Virus record (IMG/VR): IMGVR_UViG_2872152978_000002
Strand: one strand, 5' to 3'
DNA from: a virus
Lineage: Duplodnaviria > Heunggongvirae > Uroviricota > Caudoviricetes
Length of the DNA: 35,535 nucleotides
Numbering within the stretch: the stretch's first letter is position 1; every line of letters begins with the position of its first letter. The notes under the pieces are model-generated. The model was not told the DNA's origin. It worked only from the letters and a program-made list of their open reading frames with translations, and searched no databases. Positions 5,674-24,505 of this stretch are shown one piece after another. A program made the translations under genes and the position numbers.

Positions 5674-5685
5674 CGGTCAGGCTCC

Positions 5686-6971: not shown

Positions 6972-6999
6972 TACAGAAAAGGCGGGCAATTCGCCCGCC
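6972..6999 (-). terminator. Hairpin with T-run (minus strand) upstream of FI, left edge of the cargo island
   Basis: GGCGGGC-AATTC-GCCCGCC stem-loop at 6981..6999, followed on the minus strand by TTTTCTGT. Probably the backbone terminator that separates the tail-fibre operon region from the FI late promoter. Confidence 0.4.
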
Positions 7000-7063
7000 T
7001 GTCCTAGTTTGTACTCACTCATTTTCCGACTGACAATTTACATAGCCAAAACGCTATCAAATC

Positions 7064-7096
7064 TGACAGTCTGCTTTGAGCGAAAAGCAGACTGTC
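7064..7096. repeat. Perfect 14-bp-stem inverted repeat upstream of the HNH gene
   Basis: TGACAGTCTGCTTT-GAGCG-AAAGCAGACTGTCA; no clear T-run on either side, so it could be an operator or RNA structure rather than a terminator. A degenerate copy lies at 8077..8115. Confidence 0.7.
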
Positions 7097-7212
7097 ACGC
7101 GTTGAAGTTAATTGTATTACTTAGATAAACACTATCATTTTCCTGACGTTAAGTTGTATCTTTGATAGGATTAAAAAACGTATAGATAGCTTATGCTACT
7201 GAGGGAATAAAA

Positions 7213-8022
7213 ATGACGAAAATTAGTGAACGATGGAAGCACAATGGCATTACTGAAGGTTATTGCAATATTTGTGGGAAATATGGCTTGCTCACAAAAG
7301 ATCATGTTCCTCCAAAGTGCGCCATAACCTTAGGCCCTGTTTTGCAGAAAACAGTTAGCGAATTTTTTGGTATTCAGGAACCAGTTAAACCATTAAATGC
7401 TAAAAATGGCTCTTATTTCAGAACCATTTGCAGCCACTGTAACAATAAGGTATTAGGTGGGCTCGATGTTGCAATTGAAAATGTAACAAAGTCCTTTAAA
7501 GAACAGTTAAGTCGATATATGAATGGTATGAATGTATATCCATTCATTAGAATACCTTTTGATAGCATATCTTTCACTAAGGCTATGATTGGGCACGTGC
7601 TATCAGCAACTTCAGTTGAAGATTGTAAAAAAGAACCCGTAGATAGCCCCTTCTATACACCTTTAAAGGATTATGTTTTGGGTAAAAATTCAAGTTTTGA
7701 GGAAACTCATGATATTTACTACTGGTTTTACCCACACAGAATGCACATATCCGCTCAAAGTGTAGCATTTATGAACGAAGGACATGTGGCATTTATTTGT
7801 GCTTTACATTTTTTTCCTATCGGTTTTATTATCACAATGAAAAATGAAGGAACATACCCTGCCCACTCTACAAAATTAGAACTTGAAGATAAATTCCTTA
7901 CATTTAATATGACCTCTATAAATTATGAGTATACGACATTTCCATTTGTAAATCTTAAGGGAAACCAAATGTATGCGATAAGCAACGGTCATACTTGTGT
8001 GAGTTATCCAATAATTAAGTGA
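7213..8022 (+). CDS. HNH-motif nuclease-like protein with an unknown C-terminal domain, 269 aa
   Basis: N-terminus carries C-x2-C (CNIC), DHVPPK, a conserved Asn and C-x2-C-N-x-K (CSHCNNK), the spacing typical of zinc-bound HNH endonucleases. GAGGGA Shine-Dalgarno before the ATG. About 35% GC, unlike the P2 backbone. C-terminal ~190 aa has no motif I recognise. Confidence 0.75.
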   Translation: MTKISERWKHNGITEGYCNICGKYGLLTKDHVPPKCAITLGPVLQKTVSEFFGIQEPVKPLNAKNGSYFRTICSHCNNKVLGGLDVAIENVTKSFKEQLSRYMNGMNVYPFIRIPFDSISFTKAMIGHVLSATSVEDCKKEPVDSPFYTPLKDYVLGKNSSFEETHDIYYWFYPHRMHISAQSVAFMNEGHVAFICALHFFPIGFIITMKNEGTYPAHSTKLELEDKFLTFNMTSINYEYTTFPFVNLKGNQMYAISNGHTCVSYPIIK

Positions 8023-8162
8023 CGGCTAAATCATACAATCTACGCATGTTCACTTTCTACATATACCATCTATAATGTCCGCTGTTGGCACAAAGCAGAC
8101 GCCCACTCTCACGCGAATGCTTTGCCCTTGACTTGCCAACAACCGTATCGCTTGCTCCGCAA

Positions 8163-9440
8163 CTATGGTTTTTTATTAGAATCTTCGCCACTAAATAAAT
8201 TATAATAAATTGATTTTATTAGATATCTGTCAGAATCTATATGGTCAGCACGAGTAGCATGCTCTAATGTTTCAAATGCTAGGGTTTGTGCGGCTTCAGC
8301 AAAAATTCCAGGCCAACCCTTACTCAGCATCGACAGTCCTTTAAGGACCCTTATCTGAATTTCCCTCATACTGGCACCATCGCGCGCAACAGGTGAGAAA
8401 AAGTCTTCAAGTAGATCGTTATTCTGAAGTGGTGCAACATGTACAGAAGGATATTTCACTTCTATTTCATCAGATTTATTCTGCGCGTAAGCGGAAAGTA
8501 TACGTACACCTCTGCCAATGACATCAATGGCGGTTCCAGGATCGTTCACTGCGGGGGAAAGGGCTCGGCAGGCTATTTCGGCCATGACGCTAAGACAAAA
8601 TCGGGGGTCCTGAGCAAATGAACGTACATCCGAGACAATAATCGTCTCAAGTAAATCGGTGCTGATTGATGACTCCTGGCCCTGACTCAGGTACAAAACT
8701 GGCGTGGACGGATGTATGAAACTGCCCGGCTGCGCCACGAGGTATACATGACGGGGATCATTGGTCAGCAGCTTGCTGAGTTTCACCATATCAACATATT
8801 CAACATAGCCAATCTTTTTCGGATAAACTGCAACCGTTCCTTTCGGCTGTTCATTGTTCTCAAGCCATGGATATCCGCCGAGACAGGGATTTCTTGCTCT
8901 CGCAATAAATGTTTCGATGGCCGCCTGTTCTACTTTTGCCGTTGTCTCACCAACCCTCCCCAGAGAGGTCAAATGCTGTATCCAGCGAAGCAATGTGATG
9001 AGGATTAAGGCAATGACAACCAGTGTTACAATGAATAAAATGACTCTCCCCCTTTCTCCATAAGCTCCCATATTGAGGGCAATAATCCCTACCAGACTGA
9101 AGAGAAAAGAACCGATGAAGGTGGCCAGTACATTTTGTGTGGTGACGTCTTCAACAACTAAACGAGTAGCTCTGGGAGTCACATTAGTAGTGGCTGAACC
9201 GTAGGCTGTGACCATGATGCTCAGCGAAAATGTGGTCACTGCCAGCATACTCGATGCCAGTATGTTCAGAATGTTATCGACTGCTTCCGCACCAACCTTC
9301 ACGGAAACCGACTCAGGTATCATTGATTTAAAAAGAATTGATAAAAGGGCCGTTATTATTGCGACAATTGCGAATAACGTTGCCCTGAACCATAGTTTTT
9401 TAAATGTCTGCTTCAGCATCCATTTCCAGCGTGAAATCAT
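8163..9440 (-). CDS. Membrane protein with four N-terminal TM helices and a ~250-aa soluble domain (DUF2254-like, from memory)
   Basis: Four hydrophobic segments in the first ~160 aa. Start placed at the Met preceded by GAGGGA (the track ORF starts 15 nt upstream, inside the terminator T-run). Family assignment is from recollection only. Confidence 0.55.
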   Translation of the reverse strand: MISRWKWMLKQTFKKLWFRATLFAIVAIITALLSILFKSMIPESVSVKVGAEAVDNILNILASSMLAVTTFSLSIMVTAYGSATTNVTPRATRLVVEDVTTQNVLATFIGSFLFSLVGIIALNMGAYGERGRVILFIVTLVVIALILITLLRWIQHLTSLGRVGETTAKVEQAAIETFIARARNPCLGGYPWLENNEQPKGTVAVYPKKIGYVEYVDMVKLSKLLTNDPRHVYLVAQPGSFIHPSTPVLYLSQGQESSISTDLLETIIVSDVRSFAQDPRFCLSVMAEIACRALSPAVNDPGTAIDVIGRGVRILSAYAQNKSDEIEVKYPSVHVAPLQNNDLLEDFFSPVARDGASMREIQIRVLKGLSMLSKGWPGIFAEAAQTLAFETLEHATRADHIDSDRYLIKSIYYNLFSGEDSNKKP

Positions 9441-9461
9441 TCTGCATTCCCTCATATTGCA

Positions 9462-9492
9462 GCCGGGATAAATAAATGCCGCCTCTGTGGCG
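9462..9492 (-). terminator. Intrinsic terminator between the BCCT transporter gene and the downstream membrane protein gene
   Basis: ATGCCGCC-TCTGT-GGCGGCAT hairpin followed on the minus strand by TTTATTTATC, 12 nt after the transporter stop codon. Confidence 0.55.
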
Positions 9493-9503
9493 GCATGTTG
9501 CTG

Positions 9504-11507
9504 TTAACGAACCAGATGCAGGAAGTGCAGGTGTTTTTCGTACTGGTCCAGTATGTCATTAATCAGCTGTTCCTGATTCCAGCCCATTACATCATAATTT
9601 TGGCCGCCCTCTTTGAGATAGACTTCAGCGCGATAATATCGATGTTGTTCACTCTGCTGCTCATCATTATCCAGCGCAGCGAGCGCGAAGGTCGGTGAGT
9701 TATACCCGCGAAGCCTCACTTCATATATATAATTCAGCTCGTTGCCCAAATCGACTTCAAGGCGAATACGATCCTCGGCGGCGTCACTGATGTGGCTTAT
9801 CGTTCCCTGCTTGTTAAGTTCCTCCTGAACCAGCGTCATGGCGGGTTGGATAATGTCGTCCATAAAACGTTTCACAAGAGAGCGCTTCGGCAAATACGCG
9901 ATATTGCGTAACCTTCTCTGCCAGGGAATTGGGTTACGTGCAGCCGTAGGAGCAATAGTCGCCATGCTAAGGCTTTCACGCTTGGTCAAATCCCGACGCA
10001 GGGCTTTTAACAGTCCGTATATGGATATTAATAAGATAACTGAGAAGGGCAATGCACTCGCTATCGTTACGGTTTGCAACGCACTCAGCCCCCCTGCGAT
10101 CAGCAGGGCAATAGCAACAACGCCCATGAGCAATGCCCAGAAAATTCGCTGCCAGACGGGCGTGTTTGCCACCCCACCTGATGCCAGAGTATCCACAACC
10201 ATTGCCCCCGAATCAGCAGACGTTACAAAGAAGACGATGACCATCGCCATTGCAATGAATGACAGCACGGAAGAGAACGGGAAATGCTCCAGGAAATTAA
10301 ACAGGGCAAGCGCAACATCCTGCTGAACGGTATTGGCGAGGTCAGTGGCGCCCTGGTTCATGATGAGATAGATGGCGCTGTTTCCAAACACCGTCATCCA
10401 CATGAGCGTAAAGCCGGCGGGAACAAACAACACGCCAGTCACGAACTCACGAATTGTCCTGCCGCGGGAAACGCGTGCAATGAACATACCTACAAACGGC
10501 GACCATGAAAGCCACCATCCCCAGTATAATAATGTCCAGCCCCCCAGCCAGTTGCTCGACTTGGGTTCATACGCGTAAAGGTTGAACGTTTTACTCACCA
10601 GTTCCGACAGATAACCACCCGTATTTTCCACAAATGACTTCAGCAGAAGCACAGTGGGACCCAGGCACAAGACCAGCGCCAGGAGCAACACCGCCAGGCC
10701 CAGATTAAGCTCAGACAGGATGCGTATTCCCTTGTCCAGGCCGGACACCACCGAAATCGTCGCTAACCCCGTGATGACCACGATCAAAATGACCTGTACC
10801 GTTTCATTGATGGGCACGCCGAAAAGATGGTTCAAACCGGCATTCACCTGCAATACACCGTAACCCAGCGATGTTGCAACGCCAAAGACAGTGCCTATCA
10901 CGGCGAAGATATCAACCGCGTGGCCTATAGGCCCGTAAATGCGATCGCCGATAATGGGATAGAGCGCAGAACGCAGCGTTAAAGGCAGACCGTGACGGTA
11001 ACTGAAAAAGGCCAGAATCAGCGCCACGATGGCATAAATTGCCCATGCGTGCAGACCCCAGTGGAAGAACGTCAGGCGCATGGCTTCCTTCGCTGCCGCA
11101 ACGGTCTCTGGAGTGCCGACAGGTGGCGAAAGATAATGCATCACAGGTTCGGCAACGCCAAAGAACATCAGGCCGATCCCCATCCCTGCCGAAAAAAGCA
11201 TCGCGAACCAGGAGTGGTAGCTGAAATCAGGCTGCGCATGGTCTGGGCCCAGCTTTATATCACCGTAACGTGAGAGTCCAAGGAACGTGACGCTCAGTAA
11301 AATCAGGGCCACAGCAAGTATGTAGAACCAGCTGGCATTCGTGAAGATTTGTTGCTGAAGTAGTTTAAAATTTTTGTCGGCGACATCCGGGAATACGGCG
11401 GCAAAGGCGACAAGAAGGAAAATTAGCAAAGCAGATGTAAAGAATACCGCTTTGTTAACCTGGCTTGTAGACTTCTTTGGGGTTGTATCATTTTCACTCA
11501 TAATCAT
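9504..11507 (-). CDS. BCCT-family transporter, BetT-like (choline/betaine type), 667 aa
   Basis: BCCT signature GWTLLYWGWWLSWSPFVGMFIARVSRGRTIREF; overall collinear with E. coli BetT as I recall it, including the C-terminal ...DILDQYEKHLHFLHL tail. Confidence 0.85.
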   Translation of the reverse strand: MIMSENDTTPKKSTSQVNKAVFFTSALLIFLLVAFAAVFPDVADKNFKLLQQQIFTNASWFYILAVALILLSVTFLGLSRYGDIKLGPDHAQPDFSYHSWFAMLFSAGMGIGLMFFGVAEPVMHYLSPPVGTPETVAAAKEAMRLTFFHWGLHAWAIYAIVALILAFFSYRHGLPLTLRSALYPIIGDRIYGPIGHAVDIFAVIGTVFGVATSLGYGVLQVNAGLNHLFGVPINETVQVILIVVITGLATISVVSGLDKGIRILSELNLGLAVLLLALVLCLGPTVLLLKSFVENTGGYLSELVSKTFNLYAYEPKSSNWLGGWTLLYWGWWLSWSPFVGMFIARVSRGRTIREFVTGVLFVPAGFTLMWMTVFGNSAIYLIMNQGATDLANTVQQDVALALFNFLEHFPFSSVLSFIAMAMVIVFFVTSADSGAMVVDTLASGGVANTPVWQRIFWALLMGVVAIALLIAGGLSALQTVTIASALPFSVILLISIYGLLKALRRDLTKRESLSMATIAPTAARNPIPWQRRLRNIAYLPKRSLVKRFMDDIIQPAMTLVQEELNKQGTISHISDAAEDRIRLEVDLGNELNYIYEVRLRGYNSPTFALAALDNDEQQSEQHRYYRAEVYLKEGGQNYDVMGWNQEQLINDILDQYEKHLHFLHLVR

Positions 11508-11822
11508 TTATTCCATTAATTAAATCCGCACTGGATAGAAGGTACTACCTCTCACAGAGTAGCAAAGTTCAACTGGCTATGCGGGATTAATCGGAATGCA
11601 TGGTGGAATGAGTGCCGATACAAATCATCCTATATTCTAAGGAGTTTTAAGTTACTCAGCCTGCCAATTACTGGGGCATTTAATTTGTATGATCTGTATC
11701 AAAGCTGGGATATAAGTTAAGTGAAGTATATTAGGCACGAATTACCAGCGTCTGCTCTTGGCACAGAGCGGACTGTCAGATTAGACTTTACTCTGTGCTA
11801 TAGGTATGTCAGCTCATACAAC

Positions 11823-12350
11823 TTATTGCGGCATTTCCGGCCATTCAGGATTTGCAGGATCCACACGACTGACCAGAACGCTGTAGCGTTCCCATGCTTC
11901 CAGTCGGCTGCGCTCCTCATCTGTTGCCATATTCAGCCTGACAGCGCGCTCCAGCGGCAAAATCACGGATTCAGCTTCGGAAAGTAAAGTTGCCTTTTGT
12001 GATTCTGCCAGTTGCTGCTGTTCGTCTGCCGTATAAATCCGCTTAATCACGGCACCATCCTTAAACATCCATTTACCTGAGTCATCAGCACGTCGGTTGG
12101 CGGTAATATCAGGAACCTCGACAACGCTAAAACCTTCAGGGTTAAGCGTTGAAGCATCTCTGGTGATGCCGACAATTATATTATTCTCGTCGTAAACAAT
12201 CTTTATCGTGTCTTCCTGAAAATTACTTACTTCCTCATACCAGTTTTTTCCGTCTTCAGACCATAACCAGATAACATCAAAATTTTTTGTCAGTTGATAT
12301 TGGGCAACAGTTTTGGGATTACCCGCAGTAATATTTTTTAAATGCTGCAT
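11823..12350 (-). CDS. G: Tail fibre assembly protein G, 175 aa
   Basis: 175-aa ORF directly downstream of H; P2 gpG length and position. Confidence 0.88.
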
Positions 12351-12353
12351 AAA

Positions 12354-14444
12354 TTACACCTGTGCGACGTTATACCATGTGCCATTAATGTATTTTTGTA
12401 TTGGTCTGAATACTGCCGGATCATCGCCATCAACTTCGCCGACAATGCCAAGCCCTGTAATTACATGGCCTGATTTCTCATACATCACGCCTTTTTGCAT
12501 GGTCTGAACAACACGCGTACCCAGGCGAACATCTTTCACATAGCGGGAATCAAAATTTCCGTAATCTGATGGGTTAACACGTCCAGTAACACTCAGGCCA
12601 TGCCCCATTGACACTCCGCCATTGGCGTTATTGATAGTCAGCGGTCTTAAACCGTTCCATGTTCCAAATTTATCGCCAGAGGCCGTCAGCATTAAATATG
12701 TGCTGCCGCCATCATTCCTGATAAAGAATCCATAATTGCCATAAGCAATGCGCAGACCATTAGCACTGAGCGATGTAATTTCACCTCTTGAACGAAGACC
12801 ATAAGCAGAGCTGAGTGATAATTCTTCCTGAGCATCAGTATTACCTGTCGCCCAGCGAATTACCCCGCCCTGTACTGTTTCATGCCAGATAGTGTCTCCT
12901 TCTCCACCACGAAACTTTCTGAGATATTTTTTGCCGCCTCTGGTGCCGGAACATAAGGCCGTAGACATATAGGCATTCTGGCTTCCACTATCCTGATTAA
13001 TAGTTCCAGACATAGAATCGCCGTAACGGTTCCAGTCACGCCGCCAGCCAGGAGCATAGTTGTCCCCGTGGTTAATATAAGTAAATTGCGCGCTTGTAGC
13101 GCCCCCACCGCTTGATGTTGTTGGTGTGGTAATACGAATAGTCATTGCAGACTTTATGCCCATTACCTCAATAACAGCGCCAGCAAGATGAATATTGCCA
13201 CAGCCAGTATCCGTAATGATTTTGTTATTTGCATATGACCAGGAGCCTTTGCACATCCAGTACGGATGATTAAATGCACCACGGGAATCCAGCCATTCAA
13301 TAAACTGAGCGGTTGTCCAGTTTCCGGCTTCAGTGCTCAAAGCGCCGCTATAAGCACGACAGGCACCGATATTTTTCGTGAAGGTATCCTTTCCCGGAAT
13401 ATCCGCACCGTTCTGATCTTTCTGAAGACGTTTTTCAGCATTGTCATAGGCAGACTTCACCGCCTTTGGCGTTGCAGCCTGCGTTTCAGAATCACTGTTG
13501 GTGGCGCTACTGAGCTGGACAAGACCTTTTCGCGCCGTGGTGGCATCCTGTGCAGTGTATTTCCCGTTAGCAAGGTCATATGCTGTCTTAACCGCCTTTG
13601 GCGTTGCCGCAAGCGTTTCAGAATCGCTGTTGGTGGCGCTACTGAGCTGAACAAGGCCTTTTCGCGCTGTTGTGGCATCCTGTGCAGTGTATTTCCCGTT
13701 AGCAAGGTCATATGCTGCCTTTACCGCTTTCGGCGTTGCGGCGAGCGTTTCAGACGTGCTGTTAGTCGCACTACTGAGCTGAACAAGGCCTTTTCGCGCG
13801 GTGGTAGCGTCCTGTGCGGTATATTTCCCGTTAGCAAGGTCATATGCGGCCTTAACCGCTTTCGGAGTTGCAGCCAGTGTTTCAGACGTGCTGTTGGTCG
13901 CACTGCTTAACTGAGTAAAACCTTTTGCGGTCAGCGAGGCGTCAGGGTGACGTCGTGACTGTTCATGTTCTGCAATTTTGTCATCAACGTAATCCTGCGT
14001 TGCCATCACCGTTGTGGTGTCAATGGTCAGCTCCACTGAGGCCACACTGCTGACGATGATGACCATGCGGCAGGTCTGCGAACGCCCTGAGCCTTCGGCA
14101 AGGGCTGGCTTATAACTTTCGGCCATGTTCGCCACGGCAATTAGCGTTCCCGCATCATCGTACAGGCCAAGTTCACGCATCCAGAAACCGCCCACCTCCG
14201 GCGGAATAACCAGCTCTGCGATAATATAATTACTGTTTCGTTTGTCCTGGCTGATTTTGTTCAGCGCATGTCGCCAGACTTCATGGATAAGCCCGGTCTG
14301 TCCGGCATCCGGGACAGGCAATTTACCACCGCCATCCCCGACGGCCATCGTGGTAATGTTGACCTTCCGCCCTCCCGGTGCGGTTGCCGCTGCCAGCTTT
14401 GCTGCACCGGCAGTGGTGATAACGGTTTTGAATTTTGTGCTCAT
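12354..14444 (-). CDS. H: Tail fibre protein H, 696 aa
   Basis: P2 gpH position between I and G; contains four tandem ~40-aa repeats (DATTARKGLVQLSSATNS.SET.AATPKAVK.AYDLANGKYTAQ) and a divergent C-terminal domain. Confidence 0.88.
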   Translation of the reverse strand: MSTKFKTVITTAGAAKLAAATAPGGRKVNITTMAVGDGGGKLPVPDAGQTGLIHEVWRHALNKISQDKRNSNYIIAELVIPPEVGGFWMRELGLYDDAGTLIAVANMAESYKPALAEGSGRSQTCRMVIIVSSVASVELTIDTTTVMATQDYVDDKIAEHEQSRRHPDASLTAKGFTQLSSATNSTSETLAATPKAVKAAYDLANGKYTAQDATTARKGLVQLSSATNSTSETLAATPKAVKAAYDLANGKYTAQDATTARKGLVQLSSATNSDSETLAATPKAVKTAYDLANGKYTAQDATTARKGLVQLSSATNSDSETQAATPKAVKSAYDNAEKRLQKDQNGADIPGKDTFTKNIGACRAYSGALSTEAGNWTTAQFIEWLDSRGAFNHPYWMCKGSWSYANNKIITDTGCGNIHLAGAVIEVMGIKSAMTIRITTPTTSSGGGATSAQFTYINHGDNYAPGWRRDWNRYGDSMSGTINQDSGSQNAYMSTALCSGTRGGKKYLRKFRGGEGDTIWHETVQGGVIRWATGNTDAQEELSLSSAYGLRSRGEITSLSANGLRIAYGNYGFFIRNDGGSTYLMLTASGDKFGTWNGLRPLTINNANGGVSMGHGLSVTGRVNPSDYGNFDSRYVKDVRLGTRVVQTMQKGVMYEKSGHVITGLGIVGEVDGDDPAVFRPIQKYINGTWYNVAQV
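13440..13920. repeat. Four tandem ~120-bp in-frame repeats inside tail fibre gene H
   Basis: Near-identical ~120-bp units visible in the nucleotide sequence; they also generate the spurious antisense ORFs at 13266..13910, 13457..13711 and 13721..13903. Confidence 0.75.
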
Positions 14445-14454
14445 TATTCCTCAC

Positions 14455-14985
14455 TTATCCGGGGTAAACCGTAATTACATCGCCGTCGTAAGCCACACCA
14501 CCGGCGAACAGGTAGCCGGGAATATCCCGGGTAATGTTCAGGCCAATAAGATGACGGCTTGCAGGTTTGGCATCAGCAATAAGCCGTTCCATTTCCTGAT
14601 ACATTGCCTCTGTGATGCCGCTTTCCAGTACGCCAATATCAAGCCGGAAGGTGCCTGGCGGGTCACTGGTTTCCCACCACTCCGTCACGTTGATGAGATA
14701 GCCCAGCGGCTCCACCACACGCCGGATTGCACCTATAGTGCCTTTATGACAGTGGATGAAATAGGCATCGCGAATAACGGCGCGTTTGGTCGCTTCCGGC
14801 CACTTTTCATCCCACCTGTCGACCGAAAACGCCCACGCCAGCCACGGCAGCAGATTTGCCGGACAGGTATCCGGGTTCCACAGATCACGAATACTGACCG
14901 GCGTTTTTTCAATTTCCGCACAGGCTTTTGCGGCGGCGACTTCAAGCGGTGATGAGCCGGTCGGCAGCAGGCGCGAATCACTCAT
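14455..14985 (-). CDS. I: Baseplate protein I, 176 aa
   Basis: 176-aa ORF between J and H; P2 gpI length and position. Confidence 0.88.
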   Translation of the reverse strand: MSDSRLLPTGSSPLEVAAAKACAEIEKTPVSIRDLWNPDTCPANLLPWLAWAFSVDRWDEKWPEATKRAVIRDAYFIHCHKGTIGAIRRVVEPLGYLINVTEWWETSDPPGTFRLDIGVLESGITEAMYQEMERLIADAKPASRHLIGLNITRDIPGYLFAGGVAYDGDVITVYPG

Positions 14986-15886
14986 CCGAGCCTCCGGTCA
15001 CGACGCGGTATTCGGTACAGAAAGACGCCTGCGTACTGTTGAGCACAATGTCGGCCAGTGGTGCAGCCAGTTCGACACGCTGCACGCCTTCCACATGCAA
15101 AGCGGCATAAATGGCAGACAGACGGATGTCGCGCCCCAGCCGGTGCTGTGCCGTGATGTACGCTTCCAGTTTTTTCACGGCGGCAGCGCGGATGGGTTCG
15201 CTTTCGGGACCAGGGTAAAGGTAAAGCGTGGCGTTTATCTGGTATTCAACGATGGCGGCAGACTGCACGGTCACGCGGTCGGCTACCGGCCTGACGTCCT
15301 CGCCATTAAGGGCGTTACGCACCACCGCCAGCAGGTCTTCGGATGCGACACCGTTATTTTCACGTGACAGCACAGAGATGGTGACGCAGGCCGGAGAAGG
15401 ACTGGTGACAGAGATATCTGCGACACGCCCGTCGGCACTTCGACCATGATACTGATAGGCCCCCACCGACCCGGCGACGCTTAAACCTTCAAACGCCTGC
15501 TGAATACGCAGACGATAATCGGTGTCAGATTCCATCTCGGCCGGTGTCGGCGGGAGGGTCGAATCATCTGCCGGGGTGATAATCAGGCGCGCGGTGTTGT
15601 AATTGGCACCAATCACATCAAGGTCATTACCGGCAGCACAGGCCAGCATCACCGCCCGTGCGGCCTCATTCACACGCTGACGCCAGATAAGCTCACGATA
15701 AGCATTTTCCTCCAGCAGTTTGACGAGAGGCTCAGATTCAAGCGTCAGGGTACGGGCGACCGCCTCCTGCTGGTCTTCCGGGTAAAGGGAAATCAGTGTC
15801 GCCTTGCGTTCGGCAAGAATGGTTTCAAAGTCCAGCTCCTCGACCACATCCGGTGCGGGTAGCTGGTTCAGGTCGATAATCGGCAT
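14978..15886 (-). CDS. J: Baseplate wedge protein J, 302 aa
   Basis: 302-aa ORF between W and I; P2 gpJ length and position. Confidence 0.88.
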   Translation of the reverse strand: MPIIDLNQLPAPDVVEELDFETILAERKATLISLYPEDQQEAVARTLTLESEPLVKLLEENAYRELIWRQRVNEAARAVMLACAAGNDLDVIGANYNTARLIITPADDSTLPPTPAEMESDTDYRLRIQQAFEGLSVAGSVGAYQYHGRSADGRVADISVTSPSPACVTISVLSRENNGVASEDLLAVVRNALNGEDVRPVADRVTVQSAAIVEYQINATLYLYPGPESEPIRAAAVKKLEAYITAQHRLGRDIRLSAIYAALHVEGVQRVELAAPLADIVLNSTQASFCTEYRVVTGGSDE

Positions 15887-15890
15887 GGTT

Positions 15891-16238
15891 TCAACTCACA
15901 GGGATGGTTAACGAAAGTGGCTGGCCGGTGTCGTTGTGCTGACCGGTTAACGTGACCGTCATTCGCCCGTCAAAACTGCGCGCCGTGGTGACGGATGACA
16001 GGGTGACGCGGGGTTCCCATTTCAGCACTGCCATGTAACAGGCGACCTTAATCTGCAACTCAAGCGCCGGGGTCTGCGGCTGGTCAATCATTGATGCCAG
16101 CAACGAGCCGTAATCACGACGCATCACCCGTGAGCCGACCGGTGTGCGCAGGATATCGCCGATACTCTGGCTGATATGCTCAAGGTCAGTGACCGTCAGG
16201 CCATCACTGCGATTCATTCCGAGATAACGCGCTGTCAT
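15891..16238 (-). CDS. W: Baseplate protein W, 115 aa
   Basis: 115-aa ORF downstream of V; P2 gpW length and position. Confidence 0.88.
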   Translation of the reverse strand: MTARYLGMNRSDGLTVTDLEHISQSIGDILRTPVGSRVMRRDYGSLLASMIDQPQTPALELQIKVACYMAVLKWEPRVTLSSVTTARSFDGRMTVTLTGQHNDTGQPLSLTIPVS

Positions 16239-16863
16239 AGAGGACTCCCGGTTGTGCCGCCGCTGTCGCCGGGGTGTTTATGGGTATGCAGTACCTTCCC
16301 GTTTGATGAAAGTTCACCGCCGGTGTGTTCAATGTTGCCGCGCATCGTCCCGCCCTTCTGCACTTCCAGCGTGCCGGTAATCAGCTTGTTGGTGCAGACC
16401 ACCTCCGGTGTGTCCAGGGTGACGCGGGTTGATGCTTTCACCATGACCACCGGCACCGTGGCAGTAACAGAATCAGAAGCCGTCACGCTGGCCGTTTTAA
16501 TTCCGCTTACCGTGAGTGCACTGGTTTCAGGTTCATACTCAATCACCGCCCCGTCAGGGAAACGGATATGCAGGGCATCCGCCGACGCCGACGGCGCGGG
16601 TTATCGCCGGAATAAATCCCCGGCAGAACGAACGCCGTGTCGAGTTCACCGCCCACGGCCAGAATCAGCACCTGTTCCCCCACGGAAGGTGCCCACCATG
16701 TGCGCGAACGACCGGCGCGATGGGTCAGCCACTGAAGCCAGTCGGTGCACATGCCGCCGGTCTGCACACGGCAGCGACCGGCATTAAGGTCGGTTTCGAC
16801 GATAATGCCAGTGCGAATCATATTGCGTATAAAGCGAAGAATTTCATTGTATTGTGCATTCAT
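16235..16863 (-). pseudogene. V: Baseplate spike gene V, split by a frameshift (or sequencing error)
   Basis: N-terminal part (MNAQYNEILRFIRNMIRTGIIVETDLNAGRCRVQTGG...SGDN) and C-terminal part (...ADALHIRFPDGAVIEYEPETSALTVSG...GSPL) lie in different frames. They join if 2 nt are removed or 1 added near 16596..16600 in a GCGCCG-rich run; the joined length is about that of P2 gpV (211 aa). Confidence 0.7.
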
Positions 16864-16949
16864 TCGATAATAATGATTCTGTACAATCTCGAAGTAAATC
16901 ACACCACGATTTCTGGTGCACAGAACAACAAGGGACAACAAAATCCATT

Positions 16950-18023
16950 ATGAGTACTTACTTTTTCTCGTCAGAAACAATGAAAGAATTGTTCAAAGAT
17001 TATCTGGTCTTTTTGAACACGCTGACTCCCGGCACAAACTTTGAATCAAGCAGAAACAAAATAATTGCTCAAGCAATAAACTTCATTTCCGAAAACCCTG
17101 AAGATTGGGACAAAAAATCCCAGTACAACATTGCTATGATTGGCGACACCTTTAAAAGTTTCTTAAGAGAAAAGGGAGAAGATAACAACAGCATCAACCT
17201 TATATTCACTTGCTTTTTTAGATTTATCATTGAACCAAGCATTCTCTCTCCGGAAATAGAGTCTCACTTTTCACCACTAAGAACCATCAAGGATTTTGCT
17301 CTGTATAACTATAATGAATTCGATGAGCGGAGCAGAGCACAGATAGACTTTTCTCTTAGAGAACTGCCATTAGCAATGGTTAAAGAAGTTTTAAGCTCCA
17401 GCAATGTTGACACATATAAAAAATACATTGATAGTTTAAACGAAGGGCGTCAATTTTTCGAAAAGTGCGACTCCTTCTTAAAGGAGCAACATGCCAAAAT
17501 AGAGTCAATCAAAGAGTCATTAAAAGGGTATGAGGTCGCATTTAATTTTGTTGGATTGTTTGAAGGCTTTAATTCACTTGGCAAAAAGAAAGAAAGTGAA
17601 ATCATGCTATCAAGAATAATTCTTATCATCTTGGCTATAATCATTCCCTCCCCGCTGATATACTATGGAATGCATAAATTACCAGCTCTCGAAACGACAA
17701 ATGCTGCCACATATTTTATGTCAGCACTACCTTTTGCATCAGTTACATTGATTTTCATGTATTACTTTAGAGTTGTACTGCTAAATCATATATCGTTACG
17801 AACTCAGATTATGCAAATAGAACTCAGAAAGAGCCTTTGTCAGTTCATTCAGAGTTATAGCGACTATTCCTCAGAGATAAGGAAAAACAATCCGGAAGCG
17901 CTTTCAAAATTCGAAGACGTAGTATTTTCAAACATCATGCTATCCGATGATAAGATACCATCTACATTTGATGGCATTGAGCAAATAGCATCGTTAATCA
18001 ATTCATTAAAAAATGGAAAGTAA
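16950..18023 (+). CDS. Hypothetical 2-TM membrane protein (~357 aa) at the P2 orf30 moron position
   Basis: AT-rich ORF divergent from V. Mostly helical N-terminal ~240 aa, then two hydrophobic helices (IILIILAIIIPSPLIYYG and YFMSALPFASVTLIFMYYFRVVLL) and a ~90-aa tail. Followed by an intrinsic terminator. Start codon uncertain (weak Shine-Dalgarno). Confidence 0.6.
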   Translation: MSTYFFSSETMKELFKDYLVFLNTLTPGTNFESSRNKIIAQAINFISENPEDWDKKSQYNIAMIGDTFKSFLREKGEDNNSINLIFTCFFRFIIEPSILSPEIESHFSPLRTIKDFALYNYNEFDERSRAQIDFSLRELPLAMVKEVLSSSNVDTYKKYIDSLNEGRQFFEKCDSFLKEQHAKIESIKESLKGYEVAFNFVGLFEGFNSLGKKKESEIMLSRIILIILAIIIPSPLIYYGMHKLPALETTNAATYFMSALPFASVTLIFMYYFRVVLLNHISLRTQIMQIELRKSLCQFIQSYSDYSSEIRKNNPEALSKFEDVVFSNIMLSDDKIPSTFDGIEQIASLINSLKNGK

Positions 18024-18027
18024 TGAT

Positions 18028-18058
18028 AAAAGGCCAATAACTGGCCTTTTATTTATTA
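18028..18058 (+). terminator. Intrinsic terminator after the orf30-position cargo gene
   Basis: AAAAGGCCA-ATAAC-TGGCCTTTT hairpin followed by ATTTATT, 5 nt after the stop codon. Confidence 0.65.
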
Positions 18059-18125
18059 ACATGAAAATTCAAAATAAATTATGCTAATCAATTGATTTCT
18101 ATCTTATATTCTCAGATGATTAAAG

Positions 18126-18578
18126 CTAACGATTCAGGTGAGCCAGGATAATCTCTTCAATCATCTGCACATCCTCACCGGTAAAGCCGAGCAGAGGACG
18201 CGCCGGATATTCAATTTTCTTACCGTCTTTCCGGGTTTCTTCCGACAGACCGAACTGATGCACACTGGCTATTTTCGGTGACTTCCCGCCGTAAAACTCC
18301 ATTGATGCCTGTTCAGAGCTGGCGCGGATATGCAAAAAACGACTGGTGATAAGTTTCGCAAACATTTTTCGCTTAACGCGACCGGTCTTTTTTCTGGCGC
18401 TCTGCTGCTGGCGTGGTGCGTAGGGTGTGCCGTCCGGGGCTTTCTGTGCCATCACCCGACGCTGCTGACTCTGACGCAGACGTTTCGCCAGTTCGGCGCT
18501 CAGTCGCCGACGCCCTGACGGTGACAGCGACTCAATCAGTCCGGTCAGCCTGTCTTCAAAACGCTTAAACTCATTCAT
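18126..18578 (-). CDS. S: Tail completion protein S, 150 aa
   Basis: 150-aa ORF downstream of R; P2 gpS length and position. Confidence 0.88.
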   Translation of the reverse strand: MNEFKRFEDRLTGLIESLSPSGRRRLSAELAKRLRQSQQRRVMAQKAPDGTPYAPRQQQSARKKTGRVKRKMFAKLITSRFLHIRASSEQASMEFYGGKSPKIASVHQFGLSEETRKDGKKIEYPARPLLGFTGEDVQMIEEIILAHLNR

Positions 18579-19038
18579 CCCACTTACTCACCAGTTCGCC
18601 ATTGATATAAAGCTCCATCGGGCGGGTGACCGGCTCCGGCGGCGGAGGTTCCGGGATATTCTTCACATGCAGCGCGCCGTCCACCTCACTGACCAGCGTG
18701 CGCTCGGTCAGCATCAGGCTGATGCTGATATCAAAGCTGCTGTCATTGTTGATGTCTGCATAAAACGTGAAGCCCTTTTTCTGGCCTTCGTCGGTGGTCA
18801 TGATGTCGGGCTGATTTTCCCGCAGCCACGCCAGCACCGGCACGATGAGCAGGTCAAAATCACCGGTAAAGTCGGTCACAATGACATTGAGCGTGTAACG
18901 CTTTTCGAACGACAGCGACGTCGCCAGTGTGGAGGCAATACTCCCGTTATCCACGAATATCCGCAGCATATCGGGGTTAGTTTTCAGCACCGTGACGGCA
19001 TCAGTCAGCGCCCTGCGCAGGCTGTCGGGTTTGAGCAT
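18571..19038 (-). CDS. R: Tail completion protein R, 155 aa
   Basis: 155-aa ORF between the lysis genes and S; P2 gpR length and position. Confidence 0.88.
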   Translation of the reverse strand: MLKPDSLRRALTDAVTVLKTNPDMLRIFVDNGSIASTLATSLSFEKRYTLNVIVTDFTGDFDLLIVPVLAWLRENQPDIMTTDEGQKKGFTFYADINNDSSFDISISLMLTERTLVSEVDGALHVKNIPEPPPPEPVTRPMELYINGELVSKWDE

Positions 19039-19291
19039 CGTTTTCGTCCTGACAGTGTTTAATCATTTTTACCTGGCTGGCACAGCGTGCCAGCGCGTTC
19101 TCAAGCTGCCGGATATCGGCACTTAAATCGCCGTTCTTCTGCGGGTCACTGCCCGGCATCGGGCAAAGGCTCACTTTCGGGCAGGCGTTGGCGACAATCA
19201 CTGGCGTCAGTGCAGGCCGGACGCTGGTGCAACCGGCGCACAGCATCAGGCAGGTCAGCGCCATACCAGCGGCGGAAATCCTCGTTTTCAT
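19001..19291 (-). CDS. lysC: LysC, Rz1-like outer-membrane lipoprotein spanin, 96 aa
   Basis: Out-of-frame ORF embedded in the 3' part of lysB; begins MKTRISAAGMALTCLMLCAGC (lipoprotein signal with lipobox Cys), Pro-rich. Confidence 0.6.
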   Translation of the reverse strand: MKTRISAAGMALTCLMLCAGCTSVRPALTPVIVANACPKVSLCPMPGSDPQKNGDLSADIRQLENALARCASQVKMIKHCQDENDAQTRQPAQGAD

Positions 19292-19571
19292 TAAGTAACC
19301 TCGTGATGGTTTTCTCGCGCAGTGCTTCACGCTTCGCGGCGTTCTCCAGTTCCTGACGCAGTGCCACCTGCGCCAGCTCGTTTTTGTCTGCCCTGGTGAG
19401 TGCAACATGAAGCTGATTTTTCAGCATGGTGATGGTCGTCTGCTGCCCGCTGGCGACGCTGTTCGCCCTGTCCAGTGAGGTGCGCAGGCTGGCATTTTCA
19501 TGCTTCACCAGAAACAGCCCCGGCACCGCCAGTGATAACAACACAACCAGCACAATCATCAGCTTTGACAT
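19146..19571 (-). CDS. lysB: LysB, Rz-like inner-membrane spanin, 141 aa
   Basis: N-terminal TM helix MSKLMIVLVVLLSLAVPGLFLV followed by a coiled-coil periplasmic domain; P2 LysB length and position. Confidence 0.8.
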   Translation of the reverse strand: MSKLMIVLVVLLSLAVPGLFLVKHENASLRTSLDRANSVASGQQTTITMLKNQLHVALTRADKNELAQVALRQELENAAKREALREKTITRLLNENEDFRRWYGADLPDAVRRLHQRPACTDASDCRQRLPESEPLPDAGQ

Positions 19572-19984
19572 GGTTCCCGCCCCTCAAAACGCTGACGGCA
19601 GGCCGTACGTATCAGCCGGAAGAACACCGACGCCACAAGATAAATCAGCGCGGTAAAAATCCACCCGGCAGCGACCAGCGCGATAAACGTCGCCACCATC
19701 ACCACCAGAGCCGCCGCCCGTCTGCGCCACGGCACCGGCTGCAAAAACAGCGACGTGACAATCTTCACGGCCAGCGATTCCGGCGGCAGCTCCCGCCCGT
19801 AGCGTTCCAGCACATACTCAGTGGCATACACCCCGACACCACCGGTAACCACACAGATAACCGTCGCCAGAATCGCCCAGGCGGCGACAAAATTGACGGC
19901 CACGCTCTGCGGGTAAATCAGGGACAGTGCCAGCATCAGCGCCAGCGACACGTTCAGCATCTGTGAAAGGGATAATTTCTTCAT
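19559..19984 (-). CDS. lysA: LysA lysis-timing membrane protein, 141 aa
   Basis: Multi-TM 141-aa protein immediately after endolysin K; P2 LysA length and position. Confidence 0.8.
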   Translation of the reverse strand: MKKLSLSQMLNVSLALMLALSLIYPQSVAVNFVAAWAILATVICVVTGGVGVYATEYVLERYGRELPPESLAVKIVTSLFLQPVPWRRRAAALVVMVATFIALVAAGWIFTALIYLVASVFFRLIRTACRQRFEGREPCQS

Positions 19985-19998
19985 GGTGTTTACTCCGT

Positions 19999-20496
19999 TT
20001 AAGCCGGTACGCCGCCAGCGGTACGCCAGACGGTGACCAGTTTTTCCAGTGAATGCTCACGCTGACCGTAACCGGCACCCGGCAGGGACGCCCAGATATT
20101 GCGACAGCGTGAAATGGCGCGCTCAATACGTCCCGCCCGGATGTCATCCAGCGCACCGCGTTCGCGGATCAACTGAATGGCGAGTCTGTCCTGTGACAAC
20201 GGACTGAAATCCGGCAGGGCAAGCTGTTTGCGGTAATGCGGCCAGAACAGGTAAAGCTGCTGATAGCGACCGGAGGCCGTGGATTTTTCACCGCGACGGT
20301 TAAACACCTTCGCCGGTCGGCCATGTGCGAACGGGTGGTCACTGTAGTCGGTGAAAATTTCCGGCTTTCCGTCCAGTCCGGTGACTATCACGTCATAGCC
20401 CCGGTTTTTCGTCAGCGGATGGTTCGCCGTCCCTTCGGACACGGCCAGCATGTCGAGAAAGGCGGCGATATTCTGATGCGTGTTAATAACCGGCAT
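19999..20496 (-). CDS. K: Endolysin K (lysozyme), 165 aa
   Basis: MPVINTHQNIAAFLDMLAVSEGTANHPLTKNRGYDVIV... matches P2 gpK. Confidence 0.9.
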   Translation of the reverse strand: MPVINTHQNIAAFLDMLAVSEGTANHPLTKNRGYDVIVTGLDGKPEIFTDYSDHPFAHGRPAKVFNRRGEKSTASGRYQQLYLFWPHYRKQLALPDFSPLSQDRLAIQLIRERGALDDIRAGRIERAISRCRNIWASLPGAGYGQREHSLEKLVTVWRTAGGVPA

Positions 20497-20777
20497 TACG
20501 GTTTCCCCCTGCCCTTAAAGCGGCGCTGAATGGCAATCTCAATCACCTGATAACCGGCGATACCCAGCATGGAGCCGATGCCGCACACCGCAGGCAATGA
20601 CAGGTCAGGAAACTGCACCAGAACAACACCGGCAACCATCGAGACAAAACCACCGAGCAACATGCGCCCGATAAACAGACGCGGGGTGATGGGTTCACCA
20701 CCGGCAAGCACCTTGCCGACAACAATCAGCACCCCAATCATGAAAAGCGACAGGACGCTTTTTTCTTCTGCTGTCAT
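20496..20777 (-). CDS. Y: Holin Y, 93 aa
   Basis: Small protein with TM helices directly upstream of K; P2 gpY length and position. Confidence 0.85.
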   Translation of the reverse strand: MTAEEKSVLSLFMIGVLIVVGKVLAGGEPITPRLFIGRMLLGGFVSMVAGVVLVQFPDLSLPAVCGIGSMLGIAGYQVIEIAIQRRFKGRGKP

Positions 20778-20780
20778 GCG

Positions 20781-20984
20781 TTACTCCCACAGATTGACAG
20801 TTTCAGCCACGGGCGCGGTCTGAACGTCGGGCAGTTCGACGGCGGTGCCGTGCGGCAGCACCGCGCCCAGTTCAGCCAGTCCCGGATTTGCGGCGAGCAC
20901 GGTCTCAACCACGCCCTCAGTGCGCCCGTAATACCGGACACAAATGGCGTCGAGCGTGTCGCCCTGTAGCGCAAAGGTCTTCAT
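20781..20984 (-). CDS. X: Tail protein X, 67 aa
   Basis: MKTFALQGDTLDAICVRYYGRTEGVVETVLAANPGL... matches P2 gpX; start trimmed to MKTF; overlaps the L stop by 1 nt. Confidence 0.85.
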   Translation of the reverse strand: MKTFALQGDTLDAICVRYYGRTEGVVETVLAANPGLAELGAVLPHGTAVELPDVQTAPVAETVNLWE

Positions 20985-21493
20985 CAGATTTGACTCACGA
21001 TGCAGCGCGGCTTGTCCTGGATGCGCGCCACCGCCCAGCGCATATCCCGCCACAGCTCATCAATGGTGCTGTCAATGCTGTCAGCCTTCTTGTCGCCTTT
21101 CGCACTGGCATCCACGCCGCGATAACGCTCATACAGCGACGCGGTCGCCATCGCACACACGGCGCGCTCGTAGTAAAAAACCCTGATGCTTTCACCGTCG
21201 ATGTCGTCCGCCGGGACGTCCGCCAGACGCGTAAAACCGGCGGCAATTTTCTGTTCGCGGTACTCGTACAGCTCCGCATTTGTTTCCGCCATGCCTGACT
21301 TGATGGCCTCACGCAGACGGGCGGGGGCGACAGTCTGCTCAAGGCGCATACGTTCCCGGACGCGCTTCGGGTCGATATCGGGAAAAAAGAACGTGTTTTT
21401 AATCACCGGCTCGTCGCCTGCCGGTTGCGGGATGACCACCGTACCCTCACCGGACACGGGAGCCTCCTTTCGCGGAATAATCAGCGTCATCAT
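20984..21493 (-). CDS. L: Head completion protein L, 169 aa
   Basis: Start trimmed to MMTLIIPRKEAP...; P2 gpL length and position. Confidence 0.85.
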   Translation of the reverse strand: MMTLIIPRKEAPVSGEGTVVIPQPAGDEPVIKNTFFFPDIDPKRVRERMRLEQTVAPARLREAIKSGMAETNAELYEYREQKIAAGFTRLADVPADDIDGESIRVFYYERAVCAMATASLYERYRGVDASAKGDKKADSIDSTIDELWRDMRWAVARIQDKPRCIVSQI

Positions 21494-21592
21494 GACTACC
21501 TCTGAAAAGTCGGGCGGTGGACGCCGGTGCAGTGTCAGATGATTCACCCTCACTGACCGGCGTGCCGCCCTGGCGCGGGGCGCATTCGGTTG

Positions 21593-22342
21593 TTAACTGG
21601 CTTTCTTTTTCGGGCGTCCACGTTTTGCCGGTGTCACGCTCCGGGTCTTACGCGGGGTACGGGTGGCCGCTTTTGGCTGCGGCTGCGGCTCCGGCTTCGG
21701 TTTCAGCTCCCGCTCCAGTCGTTCAATCTCTTTTTTGACGCCTGCCTGACAGTCGAGCTGTGTCGCACGTTGCAGGTGCGCCAGCGCACCGGCGGCATCA
21801 CCACCGTCACGCAGAAACAGACCGGTGATTTTGTGCAGCTTTGCGCGCACTTCATCAGGCATGTCAGCAGCGGCAGTCAGTTCAAGGGTCTCCGTCAGCA
21901 GGCGGGTATCCACAGACTCACCGGCAGCGTGGGCACGCATGGCCGCAAGCGCGACCTCCTCGGTGAACATGTACGGCGGGGTGCGGCGGTGTTTACCCGG
22001 CATGGTCAGACCGTACTTCAGGGCATAACGGGCAATCTCCAGCGCACCGGCAATATCGCCGGTATCCAGACGCCACAGCATGACCGTCATCAGAATGTCA
22101 TCCTGTGCACCTTTGCCCTGCTCCAGCACGCCGTTCACCCACGGCAACCAGAACGGCAGCAGTTCGCGTTTTTTCGCGGCCTTCAGCTCTTTTGAATAAA
22201 TCGCTTTCAGTGTGCGCTGGTCTGCGGCGAGCTTAACCAGCATCTGCTCATAGACAGTTGCATGTCGCAGCGGGGCGGCTTCCCGCTGCGCGGTCATCGC
22301 TGCCGAGACCCGCATCATGTGGCGCTGTGCGGGACTCGTCAT
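21593..22342 (-). CDS. M: Terminase endonuclease (small) subunit M, 249 aa
   Basis: P2 gpM position downstream of N; basic C-terminal tail. Confidence 0.85.
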   Translation of the reverse strand: MTSPAQRHMMRVSAAMTAQREAAPLRHATVYEQMLVKLAADQRTLKAIYSKELKAAKKRELLPFWLPWVNGVLEQGKGAQDDILMTVMLWRLDTGDIAGALEIARYALKYGLTMPGKHRRTPPYMFTEEVALAAMRAHAAGESVDTRLLTETLELTAAADMPDEVRAKLHKITGLFLRDGGDAAGALAHLQRATQLDCQAGVKKEIERLERELKPKPEPQPQPKAATRTPRKTRSVTPAKRGRPKKKAS

Positions 22343-22345
22343 CGG

Positions 22346-23419
22346 TTACGCTCCCGGCTCTGCGGTCGCTTTAGCCGGTGTGGAGAAGTCACCGACCTTG
22401 ATTTTTTCCACCAGACAACCGGCGGCGTAGTCTTCCACCACGTAATCAATGTTCATTGACTCGTAGTTCTCCACGCGGTCGAGTTTCGGGTTTTCCACAA
22501 TCACGCGGCGATGGCTGTCATCCATGTAGTAGATGGACAGGTTTTCCAGCTTCGTGATGAGCATCGCATCCGCCGGGAAGTACGGGACGCGCACTGCCGG
22601 CAGGTTACCGATGCGTTTCTGGCTGATGATGACGTCAGCGGCCAGCATCTCGCTGTTGTCCTGCTCCTTGTTGACGATGGGGAAATACTTGTCCGCCAGT
22701 AGCTGACGCCCCACAATCACCACAAGGTCAGGGTCTTCCTGATACCACGGCTCAATCAGGTTGTTGGTCGCATCCATCACCAGTGCATCGAGGCTGGCAT
22801 AATCACCGCCCTTACCCACGCGGATGACCTCAGAGGTCGTGTGACCTTCCTCGTCAGTAACCTTGCTCATCACGCGCGCCGGGGCTTCATTGCGGTATTT
22901 CTGCAGCCAGCCGACCGCCACATCCTGCAGCATCTGGTTACTGCTGCGGTCAGAGGTTTCGGCACGCCTCACGCCGTTAAAACCGGCCATGATTAAATCA
23001 AGGGACTGGCGTTTGATAATGGCGTTACGGACACGGAGCTGGAAATCCTGATAACGCGCCCACAGGTCCAGCGTTTTGTAGCGGATATAAAAATCGAAGT
23101 TAATCTGGTCGCATTCGTACTTGTTTGACGCCAGCTTCGAGAAGTCCTTCGGCTGACGCTCGGTGCCACCGGCGGTGTCGGTGGTGCTGGCGATGGAGCC
23201 GGTGACACCAATACCAATTTTTTCCCCTTTCATTTCGCTGACCGGCACAATGTTGATGCGGGTCAGAAAGTCAGAGGACTCCTGCATGGTGTTCATCAGG
23301 GTCTGGGTGACCGACGGTTCAACGGTGAATTTTTTCGACACATCACCGGCGTCGATGCCGTTCAGTTCGGCAACACGGGACAGGTAGGCATTAAATTTAA
23401 AGCGGGTTTCCTGGCGCAT
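22346..23419 (-). CDS. N: Major capsid protein N, 357 aa
   Basis: 357-aa ORF between O and M; P2 gpN length and position. Confidence 0.9.
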   Translation of the reverse strand: MRQETRFKFNAYLSRVAELNGIDAGDVSKKFTVEPSVTQTLMNTMQESSDFLTRINIVPVSEMKGEKIGIGVTGSIASTTDTAGGTERQPKDFSKLASNKYECDQINFDFYIRYKTLDLWARYQDFQLRVRNAIIKRQSLDLIMAGFNGVRRAETSDRSSNQMLQDVAVGWLQKYRNEAPARVMSKVTDEEGHTTSEVIRVGKGGDYASLDALVMDATNNLIEPWYQEDPDLVVIVGRQLLADKYFPIVNKEQDNSEMLAADVIISQKRIGNLPAVRVPYFPADAMLITKLENLSIYYMDDSHRRVIVENPKLDRVENYESMNIDYVVEDYAAGCLVEKIKVGDFSTPAKATAEPGA

Positions 23420-23477
23420 AGTTTTTCCTGAAATTAAGGGTTAATCGTGAAGGTTTTCCCGGACTGACTGACGCCGG

Positions 23478-24332
23478 TCAGCAGTTCGTCATCAGGGCGT
23501 CACCGCCACCACCGGTGGCCTTGCTGCGGCGCTGCTGGGTCAGACTTTCGGTGTTGTCGAGACTGTTTTTCAGGCGGCTGAATGCCTGACTGGTTTCATC
23601 CGCCCTGTCAGTCACCTCCTGCTTAAGTGCGGAAAAGGCGGTTTCCACCTCAGCGAGGCGCTGCTCAGTGGCGCTCAGTTTTTCCTGCACATGTTCAGCA
23701 ACAGCGGTCACCGCTTCATGCACGTCATTCAGACGGGCGTCATCGCTGGCCTGTTTGCGGCCAAAAATGGATTTCACCTTTTCGGTCAGGGCGGTGAACA
23801 CGGTTTCAGGCAGGTCTTCAAATTCCAGCTCAACGGGCGTTGCCACTGAAATCAGGTTTTCAGGGCTTAATTTGAAGCGGTTCAGGGGGTTGTGTTTTGC
23901 CGTGCGGCAGAATTCCAGGTATTCCGTGCCGAGGCTTGCCGGGTCATCGGTGACGGCCAGCCCCACCAGATAACATTTGCCGGTGTTGGCAAAGTTCGGC
24001 TGAATTTCCATTGAGGTGTAGACCTTCTGCGCGGCCTTGTTCATCGCGATAAGGTCATCGGTCGGGGTGATTTTCGCAAACAGCGCCCATTTGCCTTTCA
24101 GCGCCGAATCGTCATCAATCTTTTCGGCCTTCAGTTCGACCACATCGCCATAACGTTTAAAAATACCGTCAGGCAGGATGCCGCGCAGATGTTCCAGGTT
24201 AATGCGGCAACCGTAGACACGCGGGTCAAAGGTTTCGGCCATTTCCTGAATATCCTGCGCACTGATGACACGCCCGTCACAGGTGTCACCCTCAACGCCG
24301 ATACGAAAGAATTTTGAGACTTTTTTTGCCAT
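23478..24332 (-). CDS. O: Capsid scaffolding protein O, 284 aa
   Basis: Start trimmed to MAKKVSKFFRIGVEGDTCDGRVIS...; P2 gpO length and position, divergent from P. Confidence 0.88.
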   Translation of the reverse strand: MAKKVSKFFRIGVEGDTCDGRVISAQDIQEMAETFDPRVYGCRINLEHLRGILPDGIFKRYGDVVELKAEKIDDDSALKGKWALFAKITPTDDLIAMNKAAQKVYTSMEIQPNFANTGKCYLVGLAVTDDPASLGTEYLEFCRTAKHNPLNRFKLSPENLISVATPVELEFEDLPETVFTALTEKVKSIFGRKQASDDARLNDVHEAVTAVAEHVQEKLSATEQRLAEVETAFSALKQEVTDRADETSQAFSRLKNSLDNTESLTQQRRSKATGGGGDALMTNC

Positions 24333-24505
24333 TGTCAGGAGTCCTGAATAGTGATTAGAGGAGTCACATGTCGGCATCAGTTTCCCGACGATGCGCATCC
24401 TCCGCCATCAGTCCCGGATGGCTTATCACTGACACAACAGCACCTTAGCGAATCGCGGGGCGCGACTCAGTAGCCTTGCCGTGTATTCATCACGGCGAGG
24501 TATTC

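Follow-up and report, generated by a model that had tools for sequence, protein, structure and literature searches.

A single-base gap in the central spike gene V of a P2-like prophage from Shigella dysenteriae is probably a homopolymer under-call

The closest described counterpart of the gene considered here is gene V of phage P2, which encodes gpV, a 211-aa central tail spike in which an OB-fold, a beta-helical spike, and a His-cage Apex are read from a single continuous frame. The full-length protein is represented by PDB structure 3qr8, and the C-terminal fragments that have been crystallized (PDB structures 3qr7 and 3aqj) begin at residues 84 to 95. P2 vir1 with an amber mutation in V fails to grow on a host that lacks a suppressor (bioRxiv 10.1101/2023.02.25.529910).

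We analyzed a V homologue within a window of 35,535 nucleotides (IMG/VR record IMGVR_UViG_2872152978_000002). Loci cut from CP026840.1 (GCA_002950155.1) are 100% identical to this window, and exact-protein look-ups put both the C-terminal fragment of the split V and the truncated DUF4238 product (see below) on this chromosome. The assembly is given as 'Shigella dysenteriae strain ATCC...' (PMC12679885). The V gene is on the minus strand of a prophage whose two ends are marked by copies of a 27-bp direct repeat (att), AATCTCCCTTACACGGGCTTATTTTTT, found at 145-171 and 34572-34598 by repeat search. It spans 16863..16235, from an ATG at 16863 to the native stop at 16235-16237. The prophage and the parts of V are as follows:

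145..34598: P2-like prophage holding V, 34.45 kb, between yegQ and yegR (repeat search, Res13 annotation)
16543..16863, minus strand: N-terminal V open reading frame, comprising residues 1-89, 17 out-of-frame residues, and TGA (translation, Pfam scan)
16598..16600 (about 257315-257317 of CP026840.1): 1-nt deletion in V, leaving a G3 run (C3 on the gene strand) where relatives have G4 (alignment, indel list, pattern scan of loci)
16235..16597, minus strand: remainder of V, codons 90-209 and stop, in the other frame (ORF list, Pfam, PDB match)

The original prediction placed a split in V within 16590-16605 and held that the halves would join if 1 nt were added or 2 nt removed. Both statements were borne out. 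In an alignment of the window with E. coli S10 and phage P2 (T22), a single gap is the sole indel in V, and it locates the missing base at 16598-16600, where the plus strand reads GGG in the window versus GGGG in every relative examined. On the gene strand the window reads GATAA-CCCGCGCC, compared to GATAACCCCGCGCC in S10 and P2 T22. Adding one nucleotide or removing two restores a frame of 209 codons. As deposited, the N-terminal frame continues past the break for 17 residues, RRRRRRMPCISVSLTGR, and then stops, while the longest open reading frame in the C-terminal frame starts with a GTG (Val107) at 16546. This GTG overlaps the stop of the N-terminal fragment as GTGA at 16543-16546.

The two halves carry the parts expected of a gpV-type spike. 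The OB-fold domain PF04717 is found in the N-terminal fragment at residues 17-84 (E=5.7e-21, above the gathering score), and the triple beta-helix PF18715 is found in the other frame at residues 136-188 (E=5e-29). The Apex motif scored 18.2 bits, slightly below the cutoff of 20.8, and its HTHKHPGD is the same as in 3qr8. Once repaired, V matches 3qr8 across residues 4-209 (E=7e-131), and its C-terminal part also matches 3qr7 and 3aqj; the repaired protein and P2 gpV share the same architecture of OB-fold, spike trimer, and Apex. The break follows codon 89, within the linker that joins the OB-fold to the beta-helical spike. Unlike P2 gpV, the window V has a different sequence in its first ~10 residues, is 209 rather than 211 aa long, and, as deposited, loses its frame after residue 89. 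Thus, the deposited V has the OB-fold, the beta-helix, and the His-cage Apex and lacks a single continuous frame: it is a pseudogene of the P2 gpV-type central spike family.

Around V, this prophage and P2 have a common gene order, S-(cargo)-V-W-J-I-H-G. The window differs from P2 in the cargo placed between S and V:

16950-18023, plus strand: gene for a 357-aa protein between S and V, at the P2 orf30 position, with no Pfam or PADLOC match

This protein has hydrophobic segments toward its C terminus. Its exact sequence is widespread, occurring in 1,160 blocks of the protein collection, and the gene is a candidate for an uncharacterized moron or defense gene.

The closest complete genome, E. 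coli Res13-Lact-ER01-35, was 99.57% identical to the window over positions 1..35205, with 147 substitutions that cluster at 22.5-26.8 kb, 29.2-31.5 kb, and 34.6-34.9 kb. Exactly three indels separate the two sequences over this length: the deletion in V, a G5-to-G4 change in a DUF4238 gene at 27945-27948, and a T6-to-T7 change where the right att copy ends (34599). Because there are only these three, the remaining prophage genes are collinear with those of the Res13 prophage, which is annotated without pseudogenes, and the expectation that the prophage would be otherwise intact was upheld. From position 1 to ~18-18.3 kb, the window is identical to four E. coli genomes save for the gap in V, with one additional substitution, at position 23, in the comparison with Res13. 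The change in V is therefore unaccompanied by divergence in the 18.3 kb that flank it. The prophage is also nearly identical (0-2 substitutions per ~20 kb) in L009, L011, L015, and L016, though some of the gat/yegS flanks are ~1.7% divergent; this pattern suggests that an active phage has recently spread among different hosts, entering each at the same att site. An IS1 element occupies ~35206-35535, between yegR and yegS, just beyond the prophage.

We searched for the V deletion in other genomes at several levels. A 70-nt probe across the site, scored as a gap-free match, gave the deletion in 0 of 1,706 V copies from 1,508 complete E. coli genomes. By exact-protein look-up, the intact 209-aa V was found on 577 contigs, while the C-terminal product of the split gene is on record from CP026840.1 only, plus one metagenome scaffold with an N run. 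That scaffold (L005, ENA), which encodes an identical 103-aa C-terminal fragment, was rejected as an independent case, as the CCCC is kept and the N run marks a scaffold gap. Among 25 contigs read with an identical 357-aa neighbor gene, V is split in CP026840.1 alone and in none of the 24 others. A pattern scan gave the same picture, with G3 at the V site only in pieces of CP026840.1 and G4 in all other loci (L001, L003, L007, L009, L011, L012, L013, L017, L018, and L020).

Information on how CP026840.1 was sequenced comes from its accession number. In passages of citing papers, accessions CP026774-CP026878 are credited to Kim et al. 2018 and a PacBio series, and CP026832, within this range, is termed 'a PacBio sequence' (PMC10132075). 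We infer from the accession range that CP026840.1 is part of this PacBio-only series. The same prophage occupies the same site in two sister S. dysenteriae assemblies, CP026834.1 (L009) and CP026867.1 (L011), and in the drafts L007, L012, and L013. V is intact in all five, so the deletion is absent from both sisters. We counted private changes in the six assemblies over ~20 kb of near-identical shared prophage:

CP026840.1 (window), complete: 1 private indel event, 1 private substitution
CP026834.1 (L009), complete: 3 private indel events, 0 private substitutions
CP026867.1 (L011), complete: 3 private indel events, 0 private substitutions
L007, draft: 0 private indel events, 2 private substitutions
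L012, draft: 0 private indel events, 2 private substitutions
L013, draft: 1 private indel event, 0 private substitutions

The ratio of private indels to private substitutions is 7:1 in the three complete genomes versus 1:4 in the three drafts (Fisher p=0.032), the drafts being presumed short-read assemblies from their contig sizes and accession types. Six of the seven private indels in the complete genomes are single-base changes in homopolymer length, and five of those six are deletions. The exception is in L009, where a short tandem repeat has lost 4 nt (AAAG) at the window equivalent of 17585-17588. This deletion splits the 357-aa gene between S and V into products of 221 aa and 117 aa and, unlike the single-base changes, could be a real slippage event.

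A further comparison was available for CP026867.1. Read set SRR11596843 yielded a 38-kb contig, L015, that aligns with CP026867.1 along 18.3 kb, part of which is a chromosomal flank ~1.7% divergent from that of the window. Over this length, L015 and CP026867.1 differ only by one substitution and by exactly the three private homopolymer deletions of CP026867.1. The comparison ends ~1.1 kb before V, and by its coordinates the contig is expected to span the gene; neither V fragment is on record from the SRR11596843 source in an exact-protein look-up. The IS1 is missing between yegR and yegS in CP026834.1, CP026867.1, L007, and the SRR11596843 contig. Because the contig has no IS1 by yegS and a different chromosomal flank, it appears to come from a different strain than the window, one of the CP026867.1 lineage. 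If SRR11596843 represents accurate reads of the CP026867.1 strain, as we infer for both the read technology and the strain, then consensus errors would be a much simpler explanation of the three deletions than a near-identical isolate that lacks all three. On this evidence, the series of CP026867.1 probably carries changes of the same class as the V lesion, and the V indel itself would presumably be one of the homopolymer errors of the series.

The other frameshift of the window was evaluated in the same way:

27717..28645, minus strand: frameshifted DUF4238 gene, 309 aa when intact and 237 aa here (ORF list, PADLOC, Pfam PF14022)
27945..27948: second frameshift, a G4 run that is G5 in Res13, L007, L009, and L012 (indel list, sister comparison)

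The intact homologue is identified as DUF4238-Pers by PADLOC (E=1.5e-219) and as PF14022 by Pfam, and DUF4238 is described as a single-gene anti-T7 defense of the P2 old/tin hotspot (PMC9122126). The original prediction took this second frameshift in a C/G run as a sign of error-prone reads. The frameshift is present, as a G5-to-G4 change. However, the G4 allele is common to the window, CP026867.1, and the SRR11596843 contig, which was independently assembled from a different strain. Since the allele exists outside CP026840.1, it is weak evidence for a sequencing error. It is also incongruent with the chromosomal flanks, as CP026834.1 has the flank type of the window but carries G5. This pattern would fit either a circulating phage that lysogenized strains recently and independently or a change that recurred at the run.

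We consider it most probable (roughly 0.7) that the V frameshift is an artifact of PacBio homopolymer under-calling and that V is intact in the real strain. This reading is favored because the lesion is a singleton in an assembly described as PacBio, lies at a homopolymer, occurs alongside an excess of indels in sister assemblies, and has no accompanying divergence. The change is a single-base G4-to-G3 shortening found in CP026840.1 only, and the indel excess of the complete genomes (7:1 versus 1:4) is joined by the absence of the CP026867.1 deletions from the SRR11596843 contig. In these respects the lesion resembles the false pseudogenes of long-read-only assemblies, namely, in being a single-base deletion in a G/C run that is private to one PacBio assembly, with sisters that show the same class of private change and another read set that contradicts one of them. 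Unlike the usual long-read homopolymer errors, it affects a 4-base run, at the short end of the range; a run of this length speaks against a consensus error at normal PacBio coverage. Also against the artifact, CP026840.1 has a single private indel in 35 kb, which makes it look cleaner than its sisters, and the sole private substitution of this assembly in the ~20 kb compared lies 1.7 kb from the V break and is not a typical PacBio error:

18317, minus strand: private C-to-T change on the gene strand of the tail completion gene S (18126-18578), Pro to Ser (HIRASSEQ versus HIRASPEQ)

By protein look-up, the exact gpS variant is on record from CP026840.1 and from no other assembly. This substitution suggests that some of the private changes of the strain are real, and a pair of damaging private changes, both in tail genes, would be compatible with relaxed selection. 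An unlikely but substantial alternative is a genuine and very recent 1-nt deletion that is private to the strain or stock and makes V a null allele. The deposited sequence reads so, and the Pro-to-Ser change in the same assembly indicates a real private branch. Single-base homopolymer deletions are the commonest real spontaneous indels, and historical culture-collection Shigella strains accumulate pseudogenes. V is also essential, and separating its halves should abolish function: a break after residue 89 should be a null allele because the P2 V amber phage fails without a suppressor. However, the deletion was seen in no other genome, contig, or read-set assembly that we searched, and, given a private substitution rate of ~1 per 20 kb, well under one real private indel would be expected. 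Each sister PacBio assembly shows three private indel events, with those of one sister contradicted by an independent contig. Loss of the spike would also seem to give the host no obvious selective gain, as the lysis genes are intact. The original prediction went further along this line, proposing a domesticated prophage that had kept its cargo. That proposal did not hold, given that intact copies in other strains are only 0-2 substitutions per ~20 kb away, which argues against long residence as a remnant, and that the recognizable defense cargo, DUF4238, is itself frameshifted. Neither the same lesion in independent isolates nor any other decay was found, V being a singleton lesion in an otherwise collinear prophage at 0-2 SNPs per 20 kb. 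The choice that the prediction posed, a defective prophage or a sequencing error, was nevertheless framed correctly, and the singleton status, the homopolymer, and the sister indels favor its error branch.

A third explanation, which we regard as very improbable, is that the split is real and tolerated, either as two polypeptides coupled through the GTGA at 16543-16546 or through ribosomal or transcriptional slippage that yields a low level of full-length spike. The break does coincide with the linker that separates the two structural domains, the N-terminal stop overlaps the GTG at Val107, and a passage of PMC12407873 describes the spike and spike tip of phage T4 as separate proteins. The E/E' tail-chaperone genes of this same prophage likewise have two overlapping frames in a tail gene, as in P2, and their programmed -1 frameshift site, GGTTTTTTG, is present and intact at ~4842-4850 on the minus strand. 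Unlike the V site, E/E' has its slippery run conserved in all relatives, whereas V is split in one assembly. We found no slippery X XXY YYZ heptamer at the V site, where the gene strand is GATAACCCGCGCC (GAT AAC CCG CGC in codons of the frame). Programmed frameshifting and transcriptional slippage in V were accordingly rejected, with no slippery motif and no conservation (0/1,706, and G4 at the other loci). Coupled translation is likewise opposed by the lack of the split arrangement in all 1,706 V copies and by a purine stretch ahead of the GTG that is only weak (GGGGCG); a restart at Val107 would also drop residues 90-106 and leave the beta-helix without a covalent link to the OB-fold that anchors it. 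A two-piece spike, in which the OB-fold serves as an adaptor and the beta-helix/Apex needle is translated separately, the two being coupled by the GTGA, is improbable in the extreme; were it true, it would parallel T4 and type VI secretion systems, where spike and tip are separate proteins, and would show a fused spike caught in the act of splitting. Taken as a class, anything more exotic than an artifact or a recent null mutation has a very slight chance of being correct.

The leading readings differ in what they would mean for the phage. If the frameshift is the PacBio artifact that we favor, the PacBio-only consensus of S. dysenteriae CP026840.1 would give GGG for a true GGGG, and the living strain would carry V as an intact 209-aa central spike with an OB-fold, a triple beta-helix, and an iron-binding Apex, in a prophage that would be a complete P2-like phage. 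If the deletion is real, V would yield an OB-fold with a 17-residue junk tail, with the beta-helix and Apex unattached, and without a central spike there would be no functional baseplate or tail. Such a prophage would be expected to repress, excise, replicate, and lyse its host and to release no infectious particles. One culture-collection strain would then have lost an essential tail gene through an ordinary, very recent knockout, with no new biology. P2-type prophages are classically not SOS-inducible, and mitomycin C is therefore a poor test for the V lesion.

The finding is ordinary under either reading, and what it offers in practice is a caution about false pseudogenes in this series. 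Calls of pseudogenes or of prophage completeness that are made on CP026840.1 would label the phage defective, which would be wrong or at any rate unsafe. More broadly, homopolymer indels seem to be scattered through the 59 PacBio Shigella reference genomes of the series, and these can yield false pseudogenes, including in defense genes such as DUF4238.

Two other parts of the prophage were noted in passing. The tail-fiber gene H (12354-14444, minus strand) contains an internal direct repeat of ~356 bp at 13443-13929, with 87% identity and an offset of 132 bp, and the end of the SRR11596843 contig is calculated to lie near ~13687, by this repeat. The stretch at 7213-11507, between G (tail-fiber assembly) and FI (sheath), is the Z/fun hotspot of P2 and carries three cargo genes:

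7213-8022, plus strand: 269-aa protein with no family match
8163-9455, minus strand: DUF2254 membrane protein
9504-11507, minus strand: BCCT betaine/carnitine/choline transporter

PADLOC matched 0 of these three proteins, and the Z/fun cargo is of a transporter type rather than recognizable defense genes.
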